DNA of 64,000 nt from Candidatus Obscuribacterales bacterium (GCA_965228855.1 CBDDIJ010000002.1:1472001-1536000); one strand, 5' to 3'; shown: positions 11,672-28,075, numbered from the stretch's first letter. A program made the numbers and translations. The notes: generated by a model not told the origin, from the sequence alone.

Positions 11672-11760
11672 AATCCAAAGATACTAGCAGAGAGCGAGTA
11701 TTATGCCACTGCGTGTTCGCACATATCTTGTACATTCCGTTATAGGCTTCGGCTGAAAAA

Positions 11761-11866
11761 TCTTATGGAGCCTTGCGGAACAAGCGCTTCCACCAGGGGA
11801 GTGCTAAAAACTCTTATGGAGCCTTGCGGAACAAGCGCTTCCACCAGGGGAGTGCTAAAAACTCTT
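11761..11866. repeat. Perfect 51-bp tandem duplication of the 3' end of the 11814..12857 gene
   Basis: tcttatggagccttgcggaacaagcgcttccaccaggggagtgctaaaaac at 11761-11811 and again at 11812-11862, followed by tctt. Confidence 0.95.
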
Positions 11867-12857
11867 GATATTGGCGGCGGTGCTCTTGCAGCGTGCGAGT
11901 CACTTCGACAAGCTCATCCTTCAAGCTGGCTGTTTGCGATGATTTTAACTCGAGCATGCGCATGGAGCCTTGCATCTCCGCTAGGAGTCGAAGATCTTCT
12001 AAGTGTTCGCGGCGCTCATCAGATAGTTCCTTCTGTACTTCATTCAATTGCCGGAGCAGGCGTTCTACCTCATCTGAACGATCTATCACGATCGTCGGAT
12101 GTTCCATATTCGATTCCATCGCGTACTCAGCAGCTCTTGCCAGCTCTGTTTTAGCTTTTTTGCCAGCCGTTTGAATCAAGCTGTTGAAGGAAAAACCTAA
12201 CAAATTTTCGGCGGTCTCACGCAGACCCAGTGGTTCGTCGCTGGGTGCAGGCCGCGATGATGCAGCTGGTTGTGCCTGTGCTGGAGCGGGTTTCTCAATG
12301 GTTTTCTCAGTCATTACTTCCGTCCTTGGCGTGCCACTTTTCGAGTGGCGTATTCTGAAACTTGGTGGCGGAATAATTCGCCATTCGTCCTGTCCGTCGA
12401 TTTTCATCTTGCGGGCTTTCCAGCCTTCGGGAAGGCGATTGCCCCATTTGCCGCTGATTCCACGCTCGATGGCGCGAATAGATTTTCCAAGAATTGTTGC
12501 GGCTTCGTCGATTGTTAGAGCTGGTCTTGGAACATCGTAGACTAAAACCGGGCCATCGACCGCCCAGGGTGAGTCACCATCTGCGGTATCAGCCTCTTCG
12601 GCGTCGACCACGTCATGCTCAATCTCCGGCTGATTTCTCGTAAGAGCCGCATCGAGTTCCAGTCCCTCATCGCCCTCGCCATCTTCGTTGTCGGCACCGC
12701 CGGTGGTGTCCCGAGAGAGTTCTCGTTCAAATCTTTCGATCACGGCGTCATCGATCTCGACTTCAGGAGCAAATGACACAGTTTGATCGATTACTTCGGC
12801 CTCTTGCGATTCCTGAACAGCGGCGCTGAAGTTTGTGTCTTGTTGTAAGTCTTTCAT
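11814..12857 (-). CDS. Hypothetical protein: acidic N-terminus, HTH-like segment, coiled coil and C-terminal amphipathic 'PWWKRLF' helix
   Basis: 'ALTIDEAATILGKSIRAIERGI' resembles a MerR/excisionase-type HTH. The C-terminal half has heptad-like repeats. Confidence 0.65.
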   Translation of the reverse strand: MKDLQQDTNFSAAVQESQEAEVIDQTVSFAPEVEIDDAVIERFERELSRDTTGGADNEDGEGDEGLELDAALTRNQPEIEHDVVDAEEADTADGDSPWAVDGPVLVYDVPRPALTIDEAATILGKSIRAIERGISGKWGNRLPEGWKARKMKIDGQDEWRIIPPPSFRIRHSKSGTPRTEVMTEKTIEKPAPAQAQPAASSRPAPSDEPLGLRETAENLLGFSFNSLIQTAGKKAKTELARAAEYAMESNMEHPTIVIDRSDEVERLLRQLNEVQKELSDERREHLEDLRLLAEMQGSMRMLELKSSQTASLKDELVEVTRTLQEHRRQYQEFLALPWWKRLFRKAP

Positions 12858-13934: not shown

Positions 13935-16091
<2,157 letters not shown>

Positions 16092-16281
16092 TTACTCCCC
16101 GCCGTACTAACTCGGCTTTACCGCCAAGTGTATATAGTACCTTATTTGGCTCTTGTTGATATCTTTGGCTGCTTTCAAGCAGCGCTTTTCATGTAAAAAA
16201 CTCCGACCGATATGACCAGGAATTTTCGGTCAGATTTCCTTCACTCCATGCGTTGCAAAAGGTGATATCACCTGTGGTGTC

Positions 16282-16441
16282 AAAAAGAAGAAGCCGAGCT
16301 GGAGGCCCGGCCGCTTCACATTTTTCCACTGTTCCGCCCACGTCGGGTGCGGTAACTAGCCCAATTATTTGGGTTACATGATTTGTGGATTCTCGATTGT
16401 TGGTTTGTCGAAGAAACTCCTCCGATAAACGGAACCAACAC
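16282..16441 (-). ncRNA. Candidate ~160-nt structured small RNA or leader (family not recognised)
   Basis: Sigma70-like TTTACG-16 nt-TATTTT with TG extension just upstream. Consecutive hairpins TGTTGGTT/AACCAACA, GTAAC-CCAA/TTGG-GTTAC and CCGC.CC/GG.GCGG, then a terminator-like GAAG..CCGGG/CTCGG-CTTC followed by TTCTTTTT. Confidence 0.4.
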
Positions 16442-16605
16442 TACTAAAATACCAAAAGTTTCGAAGTCGTAAACCCTTTCTAGCAAAGGATTTTGCTATA
16501 TGTCATGGAGATAACAATTGTGCCCGAATTTTGTTATACAACTTACACAAAACGCCCTGATTCGTCACGCTTTTCACGCATGCGCCAGCTGCGATTCCCA
16601 GAGGT

Positions 16606-16712
16606 GCCCGGTACAACCCTGTGATGCTCGGTCCCGGTTCTGTCCGGTTCTGCCCGGTGATGCTCGGTGTTGTCCGGTGATGCTCGGTGCTGTCAAGTGA
16701 TGCTCGGTGCTG
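16606..16712. repeat. Degenerate 10-bp minisatellite (YCGGTKNTGY) with a 20-bp higher-order period
   Basis: gtgatgctcggt at 16621, 16657, 16677 and 16697; ccggttctg twice at a 10-bp spacing. Confidence 0.8.
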
Positions 16713-16788
16713 TCCAGTCTGCCGTCTGGCAATCTTATCGGGTAGCTCTGTTTCTACTCGCTGGGTGCCTGCGTTTTTGATTGCAATT

Positions 16789-18055
16789 TTTGCAGCAAAA
16801 CCTGCAAACAAGATTGCAAGCCTCGATTTTAGCCTCGGAAAGGAGGCTTTTGAGCTTGAAAATACTGCGCCTGCAAACAAGATTGCGGTGTTTGCAGCAA
16901 AACCTGCAAACAAGATTGCAAGCCTCGATTTTAGCCTCGGAAAGGAGGCTTTTGAGCTTGAATATACTGCGCCTGCAAACAAGATTGCGGCTTTTGCAGC
17001 AAAACCTGCAAACAAGATTGCAGCCCTCGATTTTAGCCTCGGAAAGGAGGCTTTTGAGCTTGAAAATACTGCGCCTGCAAACAAGATTGCGGCTTTTGCA
17101 GCAAAACCTGCAAACAAGATTGCAGCCCTCGATTTTAGCCTCGGAAAGGAGGCTTTTGAGCTTGAAAATACTGCGCCTGCAAACAAGATTGCGGCTTTTG
17201 CAGCAAAACCTGCAAACAAGATTGCAAGCCTCGATTTTAGCCTCGGAAAGGAGGCTTTTGAGCTTGAAAATACTGCGCCTGCAAACAAGATTGCGGTGTT
17301 TGCAGCAAAACCTGCAAACAAGATTGCAAGCCTCGATTCTAGCTTCGGAAAGGAGGCTTTTGAGCTTGAAAATACTGCGCCTGCAAACAAGATTGCGGCT
17401 TTTGCAGCAAAACCTGCAAACAAGATTGCAGCCCTCGATTTTAGCCTCGGAAAGGAGGCTTTTGAGCTTGAAAATACTGCGCCTGCAAACAAGATTGCGG
17501 TGTTTGCAGCAAAACCTGCAAACAAGATTGCAGCCCTCGATTTTTAGCCTCGGAAAGGAGGCTCTTGAGCTTGAAAATACTGCGCCTGCAAACAAGATTG
17601 CGGCTTTTGCAGCAAAACCTGCAAACAAGATTGCAGCCCTCGATTTTAGCCTCGGAAAGGAGGCTTTTGAGCTTGAAAATACTGCGCCTGCAAACAAGAT
17701 TGCGGCTTTTGCAGCAAAACCTGCAAACAAGATTGCAGCCCTCGATTTTAGCCTCGGAAAGGAGGCTTTTGAGCTTGAAAATACTGCGCCTGCAAACAAG
17801 ATTGCGGTGTTTGCAGCAAAACCTGCAAACAAGATTGCAGCCTTCGATTTTAGCCTCGGAAAGGAGGCTTTTGAGCTTGAAAATACTGCGCCTGCAAACA
17901 AGATTGCGGCTTTTGCAGCAAAACCTGCAAACAAGATTGCAGCCCTCGATTTTAGCCTCGGAAAGGAGGCTTTTGAGCTTGAAAATACTGCGCCTGCAAA
18001 CAAGATTGCGGTGTTTGCAGCAAAACCTGCAAACAAGATTGCAGCCTTCGATTTT
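16789..18055. repeat. Tandem array of 12 full 102-bp units plus a 42-bp partial unit; no spacers
   Basis: Unit: tttgcagcaaaacctgcaaacaagattgc(aagc/agcc)ctcgattttagcctcggaaaggaggcttttgagcttgaaaatactgcgcctgcaaacaagattgcg(gtg/gct). Units start at 16789, 16891, 16993 ... 17912 and 18014. The unit at 17503 has one extra T. Confidence 0.97.
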
Positions 18056-18256
18056 CGTCCGTCGATTTGTCCCGCAGAGAGACGTCTGTCGAGAGGCTGA
18101 CGGGTTTTATTGACGGTTGCAACGGTCGGTGAGGAAGTCCAAAAACGTGCAGGGGGCACTCGTTTCGAGGACAACAGGGGATATATACGTATGTACACCG
18201 CCCTGGCGAGGTGTTATATAACAGCAAGAATCAGCAAACTAGCGGCAGGTTGTTGA

Positions 18257-19408
18257 ATGGACCAGGTACTTTTATCTCTTAAAAAACGAGTGGTCGTGCC
18301 GCTCATAATCGTTGCCGGTTGCTGTGCCTGGCTTATTCTCTGTCACGCTCACTATAAGAGCTACTGGTTCGGCACCATTTACAGGGTGCAAACAACTGAT
18401 TTCAACTTGTTGCACCATGTGCTGCCGCAGACGTTGTCTCAGATGATCATTGCCGGACGCGTCGACCTGATTCAAGAGACCCTGGACTCGACATTTGGAT
18501 TGTTCGGACTGGTGATCACGGATCCTTCCGGAAAGACCGTACTGTGGAAAACAGGCAAGGTCTATCATCGCGAATCTTGGCATCACAAGGCATCGCCGAA
18601 TTTGCTCAAGCTGGAAGATGAGCCCTTTGACCTTTTGACCAATCCTGTGGAGCTGGAGCCGCTCTATGCGCACGCTTCACCGCGTTCGATGCATGCAAAG
18701 CAGTTGCGCCAGCCTAAAGGTCAGGTCCTCGGCAGGCTTTATTACCTGCGAGCCGACCCCCCGGCGTTCTGGACCGATATGAAGAGTTTTCTGACGGGCG
18801 GTTTCTGGGAGGTCTCCGGAGCCAAGCGCGGATATTTATATGTAACGCTCAGCGTCACCGCGTTCTGTTTGGTGATTCTGCTGGTCTTCTGGTTGCGCAG
18901 ACGCAGTATCGAATTGAAACAGCAGGAGCTGGAGAGTGCCGAGCGAGAGTTGGAAATTCGCAGAAAGGCGCTTGAGCACTTGTCGAACGAGCTGGCTGCG
19001 CAAAGGTCGAGAAAGGTTTGGCTCGAAAAAGAAGCCGACCAGGCTTACCGACGTTCGTTGCGGTTAAAGCAATCGCTCGAAAAACTGCGCGATTCGATTC
19101 TTGGAATACCTTCCGGTCAAGAACAGTCGACGACCGGTGGCAATCAGCCGCTCCGGGTGCGCCCACCTGCCCATCCATCCAGCTCGATACTCGAAGAGAT
19201 CGAATCAATCTTGCCTGGTTTGAATGAGAACGCGAAGGTCTTGCGCCATCAAGCAGGCGTACTGCATGACTACTGTTCGACCCTGGAGCAGCGTCAACAA
19301 GAGATGCAGCGCATCGTAGACAACGCGTACAGTCAGACGATGGGACCGGCGCAAATGCCGCCTGCTCAAGCATCTCAAGCAGAGACGATAGATATGCGAC
19401 CACGGTAA
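18257..19408 (+). CDS. Hypothetical membrane protein (two TM segments flanking an extracytoplasmic domain, cytoplasmic coiled coil)
   Basis: Hydrophobic 'VVVPLIIVAGCCAWLIL' and 'YLYVTLSVTAFCLVILLVFWL', followed by an E/L/R-rich heptad region. Confidence 0.75.
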   Translation: MDQVLLSLKKRVVVPLIIVAGCCAWLILCHAHYKSYWFGTIYRVQTTDFNLLHHVLPQTLSQMIIAGRVDLIQETLDSTFGLFGLVITDPSGKTVLWKTGKVYHRESWHHKASPNLLKLEDEPFDLLTNPVELEPLYAHASPRSMHAKQLRQPKGQVLGRLYYLRADPPAFWTDMKSFLTGGFWEVSGAKRGYLYVTLSVTAFCLVILLVFWLRRRSIELKQQELESAERELEIRRKALEHLSNELAAQRSRKVWLEKEADQAYRRSLRLKQSLEKLRDSILGIPSGQEQSTTGGNQPLRVRPPAHPSSSILEEIESILPGLNENAKVLRHQAGVLHDYCSTLEQRQQEMQRIVDNAYSQTMGPAQMPPAQASQAETIDMRPR

Positions 19409-25792: not shown

Positions 25793-26383
25793 CTATTGCT
25801 TCGGCGCCTTGGTTTTGTTCACCATCAATTTTGTGACGGCTTTCAGCGTGGCAAACACGCCATAGCCTTCGATGGCGATTGCTTCAAAAGCGGGAACACC
25901 AGCGGTATTCAGCACACGATCGAGACGCTCGACAGGCATTGCGTCTGCCAGGTCGCGCTTGTTGTACTGGAGAACCCAGGGAATTTCGTCGAGCACTAAT
26001 TTGTTGTACTTCAAATTCTCGCGCATGTTTTTCATGGACTCTTCGTTTGCTTCGGCGCGCATTCGGCTTGAGTCTGCGACAAAAACAATTCCGTCGGCTC
26101 CTCGCAATATTTGCTTGCGGCTTCGATCGTATTCTTCCTGACCAGGAACGGTGTAGATCGCGATTCTCAGTTTAAAACCTGCAACAAGATCGAGCTCGAT
26201 CGGCATGAAATCAAAGAAGAGGGTACGTTCGGTTTCAGTCGCAAGTGATACCATCTCGCCACGGCAAGTCGGATTGATTTGCGCGTGAATGTATTTCAAG
26301 TTCGTAGTTTTGCCACCAAGTCCGGTGCCGTAATAAACGAGCTTGTAAGTTATTTCTCTTTTGGCGTAATTGATAAGGGGCAT
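25793..26383 (-). CDS. mglA: MglA-family small Ras-like GTPase
   Basis: 'KLVYYGTGLGGKTTNL', 'TETERTLFFDF', 'TVPGQ', 'GADGIVFVADS' and 'QYNKRD'. Confidence 0.92.
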   Translation of the reverse strand: MPLINYAKREITYKLVYYGTGLGGKTTNLKYIHAQINPTCRGEMVSLATETERTLFFDFMPIELDLVAGFKLRIAIYTVPGQEEYDRSRKQILRGADGIVFVADSSRMRAEANEESMKNMRENLKYNKLVLDEIPWVLQYNKRDLADAMPVERLDRVLNTAGVPAFEAIAIEGYGVFATLKAVTKLMVNKTKAPKQ

Positions 26384-26479: not shown

Positions 26480-28075
26480 CTAGAGTCCTTGTATGTTCTG
26501 GTAGAGTATCACAGGGGATGCCGAGGATTCAGCATGCTTCTTCGCCTCAGAGGCGGCTGATAGGAGCTGACCCATAGTTTTGCAGTTCTCCGGAATTCCA
26601 GCGATTCCGAAACACATGACAACGTTCTGCGCGGCTGGAAGTTGTGCAAGGGACTCCTGAACTTTTTGTGCAAACACCGCCGCCGAACGTGTTCCTGTGT
26701 TGGGCAGCACCACTCCGTAGTCAAACATCTGGAAGTGTCCGATCATGTCGATTGGTCGCTTGAGCGAATGAATGACGGACATTATCTCCTTGACTGCCGA
26801 AAGATCGGCTGCATTACCGTCGCTCTTGCGACGGATGCTGAAGACGACTACTGAAAGCGGCATTCCGCAGAGTTCGTAGCGGAAACATTCCTGGGCGACA
26901 AAATACTGGAAGGCTGGATAGGTGAGCACGCCTGTCTCGGGTCGCATGCAAGGTTTTAAAACCTGTTCGAGGGTTTTGATGTCGACCTGGGCGTCTAGGA
27001 GTTGGGTCTGTTTTCTTTGCTGGGGCGGCTTGTCTGAAACGCCAAGCAAATTGAGCGTAACCAGATTGAAGATGATCGGGACCCATTCGGAACGTTTCAA
27101 AGGCTTGCTGCGCAAGAGATCGAGGAGAGTTTTGTAATCGCCGACCTCGCGGTAGATCTGGCGCTGCAGCATTTCGTCTACCGGAGCGCCTCCTGAGACA
27201 ATCTGAGTGAACTCTTCGAGCGTCAAGTTGGGATTGCGCGTGATCAGATAAGCGTCTCCCGTTAGCCCTTGCTGGTCGAGGTAAGTGCTCTGGTCGACGA
27301 GCGTAACGGCTTCCATTATCAGTCCGTCGAGGCGCCTATTGATGCTGCGTTCTACGGTGCGCTCGTCAGGTATGAAACGGAATTTGCCGACGTTAAGCGT
27401 GATCATGTCGAGAATTACATCTGCACCAGTATCCACCCCGTCGGATGCATGCACGGGTTCGCCTTCGTCGAAGTAAACGTCGACTCCCCGACCCTCGCTG
27501 CGAACCGCGAGTCGACCGGTCATCTGCCCCATCTGAATTGATTGCAGAACAGTCGGCAGCTGAACTTTGGCTATGTCACCCTGAAGCACAGCCTCTGCTT
27601 CATTCTCCGATTCCTGCTGGAGCTTGAAGGAACGCGTCGAGCCCTTCGTGGTTGCGGTGCTATCCTCCGTGGTCACTCCGAGCGTTATGGACGAACCGCC
27701 GCTGAGTCCGCCATTGGAGGTTGAATTCGCTGAGATGTCGCCTGTGCTCTCCGCGAAGATGAGATTATGAATGAGCCCTGTGTCGATCGTCCTGTGCTGC
27801 CACAAAGTCGACGTGTCCATCATGTTGCTTGCCGAAAGCGTCCAGCAAGGGTCGCCCGTGTCGTCGCAGGATACTCGCAAATTCAAAAGCCTGTCCTGTC
27901 CTTCCACCGACCAGTACTGCTCGATCACGCGCCCCTGGTCTTTGTTTGCCATGCTGAGCATGGAAATCACGTTTTCCAGGGTTGGAACGACCCAGAGCTG
28001 CGGCAGCTTCAGGGACGAGGTGCTCTGGGATCGTCTGGAGGCGGAGAGCTCTTTGTGTTGGTTCGATCTGAACAT
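26480..28075 (-). CDS. DUF4388 (PATAN-like) domain plus degenerate GGDEF-like domain protein
   Basis: 'LQGDIAKVQLPTVLQSIQMGQMTGRLAV...VYFDEGEPVHA' is DUF4388-like. 'PETGVLT' and 'RPIDMIGHFQMFDYGVVLPNT' give a GGDEF fold with RxxD and a degenerate active site. Confidence 0.75.
   Translation of the reverse strand: MFRSNQHKELSASRRSQSTSSLKLPQLWVVPTLENVISMLSMANKDQGRVIEQYWSVEGQDRLLNLRVSCDDTGDPCWTLSASNMMDTSTLWQHRTIDTGLIHNLIFAESTGDISANSTSNGGLSGGSSITLGVTTEDSTATTKGSTRSFKLQQESENEAEAVLQGDIAKVQLPTVLQSIQMGQMTGRLAVRSEGRGVDVYFDEGEPVHASDGVDTGADVILDMITLNVGKFRFIPDERTVERSINRRLDGLIMEAVTLVDQSTYLDQQGLTGDAYLITRNPNLTLEEFTQIVSGGAPVDEMLQRQIYREVGDYKTLLDLLRSKPLKRSEWVPIIFNLVTLNLLGVSDKPPQQRKQTQLLDAQVDIKTLEQVLKPCMRPETGVLTYPAFQYFVAQECFRYELCGMPLSVVVFSIRRKSDGNAADLSAVKEIMSVIHSLKRPIDMIGHFQMFDYGVVLPNTGTRSAAVFAQKVQESLAQLPAAQNVVMCFGIAGIPENCKTMGQLLSAASEAKKHAESSASPVILYQNIQGL

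Follow-up and report, generated by a model that had tools for sequence, protein, structure and literature searches.

The window analysed here is a stretch of 64,000 nucleotides from a Candidatus Obscuribacterales genome (G000:C2:1472001-1536000; the genome, 8.2 Mb in six contigs, is 95% complete). It holds, between two divergent genes (Table 1), a tandem array that TRF places at 16788-18055 with a period of 102 bp, 12.4 copies and 96% matches. The initial annotation, made from the sequence alone, had described about 12.4 units of 102 bp with a repeated 17-mer, two dimorphic sites in all four combinations, a C-to-T change in unit 6, an extra T that shifts the open frames and a degenerate copy edge near 16765. 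All of these were recovered. When the array is split into units, the 17-mer is present 25 times, the four combinations and the unit-6 change are seen, and one 103-bp unit appears whose run of five T shifts the open frames; the degenerate edge is a core scoring 54.2 on the repeat-family matrix (C2:1488769). What changed is the phase of the unit. The 17-mer falls within an 18-bp palindrome, CTGCA-N8-TGCAG (hereafter box), and the true unit is a 51-bp core, two boxes set 33 bp apart, plus a 51-bp linker.

The array is supported by read depth and by a relative. In contigs assembled from the short reads of run X1, possibly the source sample itself, the array unit stands at depth 103-109 and the flanks at 12-16; none of these contigs spans the array, and both the precise number of copies and the extra T are assembly values. 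The sister genome G007 carries an orthologous array of nine exact cores, with one 33-bp duplication, where G000 has 13 cores. Units of 103 bp are found in other arrays of the repeat family too.

Table 1. Features of the array, its flanks and its candidate partner gene (window positions unless a contig is given)
Feature	Position	Strand	Basis or remark
Left flanking gene, MshEN-type c-di-GMP-binding repeat protein, bystander	13935..16091	-	NCBIfam NF053729, E 1.8e-34
Non-coding block with genus-wide conservation (69-78%), bounding the ancestral short intergenic region on the left	16275..16535	.	
20/10-bp tandem repeat, gained with the array	16645..16715	.	More copies in G007; absent from five aligned congeners
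Whole array, 13 double-palindrome cores (first degenerate), 12 linkers of 51-52 bp	16769..18055	.	
First core; of its boxes the left is degenerate and the right (16802-16819) intact	16769..16819	.	Matrix score, box list
First 51-bp linker, holds AGCCTC/GAGGCT hairpin; array-specific, stem not conserved in G007	16820..16870	.	
First complete 51-bp core: two 18-bp boxes around a 15-bp T-tract/A-tract spacer	16871..16921	.	
103-bp unit, extra T (17541-17545) and one further substitution	17503..17605	.	Assembly sequence
Last complete core; an 11-bp stub of linker follows	17994..18044	.	
Conserved motif upstream of right-hand gene	18187..18225	+	
Right flanking gene, 383-aa protein without Pfam family, bystander	18257..19408	+	
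Candidate cognate gene, 287-aa PLD/HKD nuclease with HipB-like HTH	G000:C2:1042618-1043481	minus	
Repeat clusters on C2 (nine)	145k, 170k, 219k, 318k, 573k, 908k, 1041k, 1044k, 1489k		

In five aligned congeners no array is found at the window locus, which holds just a short intergenic region; the array was thus gained in the lineage of G000 and G007. The conserved block at the left edge occurs in all seven congeners and in one other genus (69-78% outside G007) and has several stems; it has no Rfam match and, lying upstream of the MshEN-type gene, is a candidate leader or small RNA. The motif before the right-hand gene sits a few hundred bases from this block in array-less congeners. The left-hand gene product has 718 aa, four MshEN-type c-di-GMP motifs and a Gln/Gly-rich tail whose coding sequence has 27-bp repeats (14260-14565).

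The initial annotation took the array as its best candidate for an undescribed element. The search of the unit and 17-mer through the genome and its relatives that it had proposed returned arrays in G007 and 11 in G000, the window array being the longest; besides those on C2 there are two on C5 and none on C3, the 3.76-Mb terminus contig, so that every array is on the side of the replication origin. Genome-wide there are 43 exact cores (46 by matrix), the exact ones sitting between long ORFs. On C2, C3 and C5 the 16-bp core palindrome is found 77 times with its 4-bp centre, against 2-12 times for each other centre length (n = 11), and box-to-box spacings are dominated by 33, 69-70 and 102-103 bp. 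Mean identity between the 11 arrays is 0.85 for boxes, 0.56 for the central spacer and 0.36 for the linker, and linker length stays at 50-52 bp despite this sequence decay. Box arms and spacing are thus kept while box centres, central spacer and linker drift, as the geometry of protein-bound DNA would predict, unlike RNA or protein. A second repeat family, of 54 bp, has members no more than 160 bp from four of the arrays. In a GTDB scan the repeat arrays were confined to Candidatus Obscuribacterales records. Among the pattern matches from GTDB (at least 111 loci of about 140, from 55 of 64 parts) and IMG/VR (37), only the G007 arrays scored above 31 on the family matrix; the others were single matches.

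The dnaA gene at C2:793 kb coincides with the GC-skew minimum; both lie 695 kb from the array, whose identity as an oriC or iteron was therefore rejected. Since contig C4 of G007 crosses the junction between C5 and C2, array-origin distances could be computed. Their mean is 566 kb (P = 2e-6 against uniform placement), and the origin-side palindromic sites spread over +/-0.8 to 1.5 Mb.

Array sites turn over between G000 and G007, whose flanks are about 95% identical. Ten sites can be compared, six of them shared and four differing by presence or absence (the flanks of the 145k and 318k arrays are absent from G007, and the 170k and 219k arrays were left out). The three polymorphic sites inspected in sequence held another repeat array, small ORFs, or a gene between other repeats, and in none of them was a clean empty site, a duplicated target or a junction left by excision seen. 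The C2:145k unit of G000 is matched by a G007 unit from a non-orthologous site (z = 10, best of 91 pairs, of which 24 exceed z = 3). Since this match extends over the linker, core and linker likely travel as a single unit, to judge from sequence similarity.

The initial annotation had seen no nuclease or transposase nearby. This holds for the flanking genes, but a likely partner, which would act in trans, is encoded 430 kb from the window array. The candidate gene is bracketed by two arrays inverted to each other, one 262 bp upstream (1041k and 1044k are the clusters concerned) and one 1.7 kb downstream. Among the ORFs within 3 kb of it no methyltransferase was recognised (the Pfam scan covered the GH130 neighbour), and no HipA kinase toxin was seen among its neighbours. 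The inverted arrays (L180/L179, G000 C2:1040793-1044099) also enclose the GH130 phosphorylase gene, an arrangement that resembles a composite element with cargo. In 104 host-family genomes the exact repeat pattern occurs in two, and only those two hold a 99-100% orthologue of the protein; the remaining matches of the orthologue search are at 40% identity or less. This co-occurrence is one lineage event. A metagenome contig carries a 95% orthologue with two cores upstream.

The 287-aa protein consists of a PLD-like domain followed by an XRE HTH. Its predicted model has a pLDDT of 84.7 (an earlier AlphaFold model, from seven sequences and with pLDDT 54, was set aside). The N-terminal domain of the model matches SauUSI (Z 14.6), NucT (14.5), Nuc (13.8) and BfiI (12.2), with rmsd 2.2-2.7 over 130-133 aligned residues, and the C-terminal domain matches HipB and C-proteins at Z about 9 (HipB profile, E 4e-11). 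The top Foldseek match of the model is TrmBL2, a chromatin protein of archaea whose fold is PLD-like (Z 11.4). The HxKxxxxD motif is present at 30 of 30 loci with a match, and H102, K104, D109, G116 and N119 are invariant in 30 sequences that are mostly 22-32% identical. By motif search and predicted model the protein thus has both marks of the PLD superfamily, the fold and the HxKxxxxD...GSxN motif. C57, H95, C151 and C154 are also invariant in the 30 sequences and could form a metal site between the nuclease and HTH domains. By PADLOC the PLD domain weakly resembles MkoB/MkoC (E 3e-6).

Prediction of a homodimer scored 0.46, against 0.00 for the best control, with an interface at residues 170-246; 20 of 30 paired chains passed the mark used for this score, as did 1 of 23 single ones. 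Contact agreement in the dimer runs was at least 82% and pLDDT at least 79. The pass may rest partly on likeness to solved HipB dimers. Contacts between PLD domains fall outside the confident dimer contacts, which does not argue for their absence.

Four more PLD-HTH paralogues are encoded on C2, at 67k, 103k, 918k and 1002k. A double box with 33-bp spacing, resembling the 54-bp repeat family, adjoins the 103k paralogue. The window repeat differs from the 54-bp repeat in box sequence, in the paralogue it adjoins, and in forming tandem arrays of fixed period. A further repeat family lies upstream of the 67k paralogue (G000 C2:66448-67145), with a similar-looking 106-bp array at C2:163997-164265; this paralogue and its upstream repeat are likely a third enzyme-repeat pair. 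The 918k paralogue (G000 C2:917966-918772) is without the HKD motif and is the tree sister of the 1002k paralogue; it could act as a regulator or dominant-negative partner. Short tandem repeats like that beside the window array also occur next to the 573k array and the 67k and 918k paralogues, and are possibly scars of the same process.

The association of gene and repeat was then scored in other genomes of the host family. The flanks of 27 homologue loci were scored for two similar palindromes 30-36 bp apart within 1.5 kb (L209 was dropped as near-identical to L208, and L213 gave no tblastn match). Nine of the 27 score at least 37; among control windows, 2 of 209 on the origin side of G000 (both from the window-repeat family) and 1 of 203 on C3 do so (Fisher p 4e-8). 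Of the 27 loci, 17 score under 34, that is, have no strong double palindrome within 1.5 kb, some of them on short contigs. Boxes beside homologues differ in sequence and keep the layout, including the A/T-tract spacer. Sister proteins have boxes that look similar by eye (G104 and G111; G041 and G043, plus G016 in the same larger clade). At five loci the boxes are situated 9-64 bp past the stop codon, at others they are upstream, and at some they are on both sides; boxes just past a stop codon or on both sides of a gene do not fit a plain operator.

Nine of these box pairs, drawn from the best-scoring loci (eight of the nine scoring at least 37, plus L208; L191 was left out), were used as search patterns with 2-3 mismatches. 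For eight, the gene-adjacent pair is dispersed elsewhere in its own genome, with 5 copies in G041, 4 in G016, 4 in G104, 15 in G043, 5 in G070, 3 in G086 together with 5 in G087, and 3 in G077; the G049 repeat is on 13 contigs and also builds tandem arrays. In G111 the pattern was found solely beside the gene. Searches of the patterns in non-cognate genomes gave 0 matches in 40. In the complete genome G041 all five copies are found 0.4 Mb or less from dnaA (P = 9e-4 with the gene-adjacent copy excluded); in G016 three of four lie 1.0-1.3 Mb from it, so that the origin bias is not always tight. The PLD-HTH profile collects 362 clusters at 50% identity (E up to 1e-30) and matches 59 of the 104 host-family genomes at E 0.001, some as PLD-only matches in longer frames. 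No relatives were found at E 1e-25 in 300 other genomes of the phylum, none of them from the host family, or in the viral contigs searched. Leads from the ESM Atlas were all under 0.9. The PLD-HTH tree does not follow the host genera.

The repeats and enzyme were compared with known systems. REPINs consist of paired short palindromes that recur in extragenic DNA of a genome (PMC3116915, PMC3337134), their family-specific sequence is matched to a single-copy enzyme gene flanked by repeats, several families can share a genome, copies are present or absent between close relatives, and tandem clusters include flanking DNA; REPIN-RAYT repeats also form nested clusters with unrelated repeats (PMC3116915). 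All of these features have a counterpart here. The differences are that the partner here is a PLD nuclease with a HipB-like HTH, that the distance between boxes hardly varies across genera (31-34 bp), that copies are few (3-46) and origin-biased, and that the doublet may not need to pair as a long hairpin: its arms are complementary by symmetry, while the box centres pair in 11, 8, 3 and 15 of 15 units. Membership of the REPIN-RAYT class itself was rejected, since the Y1 (HUH) transposase family PF01797 has 0 matches in the 95% complete G000 (control found in 6 of 14 genomes).

With BfiI, Nuc and NucT the protein shares the PLD fold (Z 12-15) and one HxK motif per chain, and with BfiI also an N-terminal nuclease and C-terminal DNA-binding domain (PMC2853115, PMC2475615). 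It differs from them in its HipB/XRE-like DNA-binding domain, in that no methylase is seen beside the gene, and in a host chromosome with dozens of likely sites. The HipB operator is TATCC-N8-GGATA (PMC3376134), and the boxes resemble it and C-protein boxes, being 18-bp palindromes of the form 5-N8-5 in tandem; to judge by this shape and by the HTH similarity to HipB, they would be of the hipBA operator type. Here, in contrast, the sites are dispersed, arrayed and often downstream, and the HTH is fused to a nuclease. TrmBL2 likewise joins an HTH and a PLD-like fold in one chain. It has the opposite domain order and a different HTH class, whereas PLD-HTH proteins keep the invariant HKD motif and have sequence-specific boxes beside their genes. 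A CRISPR array was rejected because there are no unique spacers, the linkers being near-identical within the array; no cas genes were found among the flanking proteins scanned. parS/ParB was also rejected: origin-side palindromes are present, but no chromosomal ParB CTPase was found, the search with PF02195 giving a single match in the 95% complete G000, a 727-aa frame on its contig C4.

The boxes are very probably binding sites of the predicted 287-aa PLD-HTH protein. This agrees with one option of the initial annotation, about 25 protein-binding DNA sites, since arms and spacing are kept and a candidate binding protein was found. We take the array to be non-coding and, very likely, a set of protein sites within an undescribed nuclease-repeat system. 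On balance we regard the array as the largest member of this protein's family of binding sites, spread to new intergenic sites by the protein itself. The reading that accounts best for the observations, and one we think somewhat better than an even bet, is a repeat-plus-enzyme system like REPIN/RAYT in which a PLD nuclease replaces the tyrosine transposase. RAYT enzymes are thought to spread REPINs, and we propose much the same role, by analogy, for the PLD-HTH protein. To our knowledge there is no PLD-family transposase.

The proposed mechanism is as follows. The protein would dimerise through its HipB-like domain, as modelled, and one dimer would read one 18-bp box. Dimers on both boxes of a core would stand three helical turns apart on the same face. 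By analogy with PLD chemistry, one HKD motif per chain would mean that an active site needs two chains; the nuclease domains of two dimers could pair over the A/T-tract spacer, or across the linker. The occurrence of boxes in fixed pairs would then be explained, since single-HXK nucleases need two chains and two dimers would provide the active site over the spacer. Cutting would go through a covalent His-DNA intermediate, again by analogy. Single-HXK PLD nucleases have an active site built from two subunits and a phosphohistidine intermediate (PMC2853115), and BfiI can resolve its covalent intermediate by transesterification (PMC2475615), a possible route to strand transfer. Strand transfer from the His-DNA intermediate would move the whole unit of core plus linker; alternatively, a break could be repaired, or copied by break-induced synthesis, with another copy as template. 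Slippage or unequal exchange would later expand and homogenise the array, which would give the four-way mixing of variants that is seen. A difficulty for cutting is host survival, since the 46 cores would be cut sites on the host chromosome. The weakest step is the one that would account for the origin bias, namely that extra chromosome copies near the origin make breaks survivable.

Among the alternatives, the one that survives best, although we consider it unlikely, is that the boxes organise the chromosome. As a factor specific to this lineage, the protein would serve the nucleoid or segregation in the manner of parS or TrmBL2; its PLD domain would oligomerise on the arrays, marking the origin-side domain, and the arrays would be kept for multivalent loading. 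The origin-side clustering in G000 and G041, the fixed spacings of 33 and 102-103 bp and the fold resembling TrmBL2 all fit, as does the failure to find a free-standing ParB, ParB_N being present only in the 727-aa frame on a small contig. Against it stand the invariant catalytic residues, and with this query the gene was not found in 45 of the 104 host-family genomes. The five divergent paralogues in one genome, several with their own repeats, the turnover of sites between 95%-identical genomes and the departure of the protein tree from the host genera also speak against chromosome organisation.

Less likely again is a self-limited toxic nuclease of the addiction or defence kind, which would repress its own gene through the double box. 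The dispersed copies would be titrating decoys, spread by ordinary recombination, and arrays would have grown because more decoys lower toxicity. The kinship of the HTH to HipB antitoxins and restriction-modification controller proteins, the weak likeness of the PLD domain to MkoB/MkoC and the boxes upstream of the gene at several loci are in keeping with this idea, but the five loci with boxes directly past the stop codon are not. No methylase or toxin partner is seen beside the G000 gene, the tested neighbour being the GH130 phosphorylase, and new sites and a fixed unit length are left unexplained.

A neutral VNTR, in which single cores are relics and the array has grown by slippage with no present function, we hold to be improbable. 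It is favoured by the variable copy number (13 cores in G000 against nine exact cores and one 33-bp duplication in G007) and by the mixing of variants along the array, and it may explain why the window array is the longest. It does not account for box arms that are 85% identical beside linkers of 36% identity and constant length, or for an architecture that recurs, with other sequences, beside the same gene family.

The initial annotation preferred a repeated structured RNA, either a sponge or a precursor of processed 102-nt units, and described two hairpins in each unit. We consider this very improbable. Folding z-scores reach -2.7 and terminator-like stems number 19 where 4.3 are expected, but the z-scores are similar on both strands (-1.3 to -2.7) and the two hairpins are not kept: the second hairpin is intact in one of eight G007 linkers and the first in one of 11 arrays (first units tested). 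Box centres fail to pair across the core, most clearly at the third column (3 of 15), a sigma-70-like promoter is absent from 16000-18300, and Rfam gives only chance-level miRNA and C4 matches far below their gathering scores. Its last option, a 34-aa repeat protein with a homopolymer sequencing error, is hardly credible: the unit has four open frames, in one of which each dimorphic site stays inside a codon, and the G007 duplication measures 33 bp, but other arrays of the family have a period of 103 bp or are closed by stops in every one of the six frames (clearly so for 4 of 11, the rows for 170k and for C5 885k, with its 101-bp first unit, not being counted), open frames differ between arrays, congeners have only the short intergenic region at the locus, and there is no credible Pfam match, four repeat ORFs giving repeat-inflated E-values with no stretch passing.

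If the REPIN/RAYT-like reading is correct, the PLD fold would become one of the few chemistries by which DNA elements are moved or copied. The lifestyle of REPIN/RAYT would have arisen a second time, independently, and the persistence of repeat populations could be compared across two unrelated enzymes. A wider claim, to which we give somewhat less than an even chance, is that the divergent PLD-HTH enzymes of the Obscuribacterales, several hundred in number, each evolve together with a double-palindrome element of their own, which they copy by phosphohistidine strand transfer. Element and enzyme would constitute a new class of non-autonomous element with a domesticated mobiliser that uses none of the DDE, HUH, serine and tyrosine chemistries, and the enzymes would form a natural collection of reprogrammed proteins that cut or join DNA at two sites. 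No description of such a nuclease-repeat system was found in the open-access PMC and bioRxiv literature. Since nine protein-site pairs can be read from the genomes, the recognition code and the two-site activation model are open to direct test. Even if the sites organise the chromosome instead, they would represent an undescribed system for marking the origin domain, in a lineage in which no free-standing ParB was found.

Some other repeats and genes were seen along the way. A second 14-16 bp palindrome occurs at 23 loci in tight clusters on C3 (0.75-1.75 Mb) and C5 (1.0-1.25 Mb) and is absent from C2; it may be a family of sites in its own right, or repeats of a CRISPR-like kind. G000 also holds about 1,700 copies of a 4-N6-4 palindrome, spread evenly over C2, C3 and C5 (a count made without spacer-length control); this palindrome recalls the highly iterated palindromes of cyanobacteria. 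In the window, a 51-bp tandem repeat of 2.3 copies (11752-11866) overlaps the end of the gene at 11814-12857, and its pattern is unrelated to the array core. From their sequences, we take 25793-26383 to encode an MglA-like small GTPase and the adjoining 26480-28075 a DUF4388 protein with a degenerate GGDEF-like tail.
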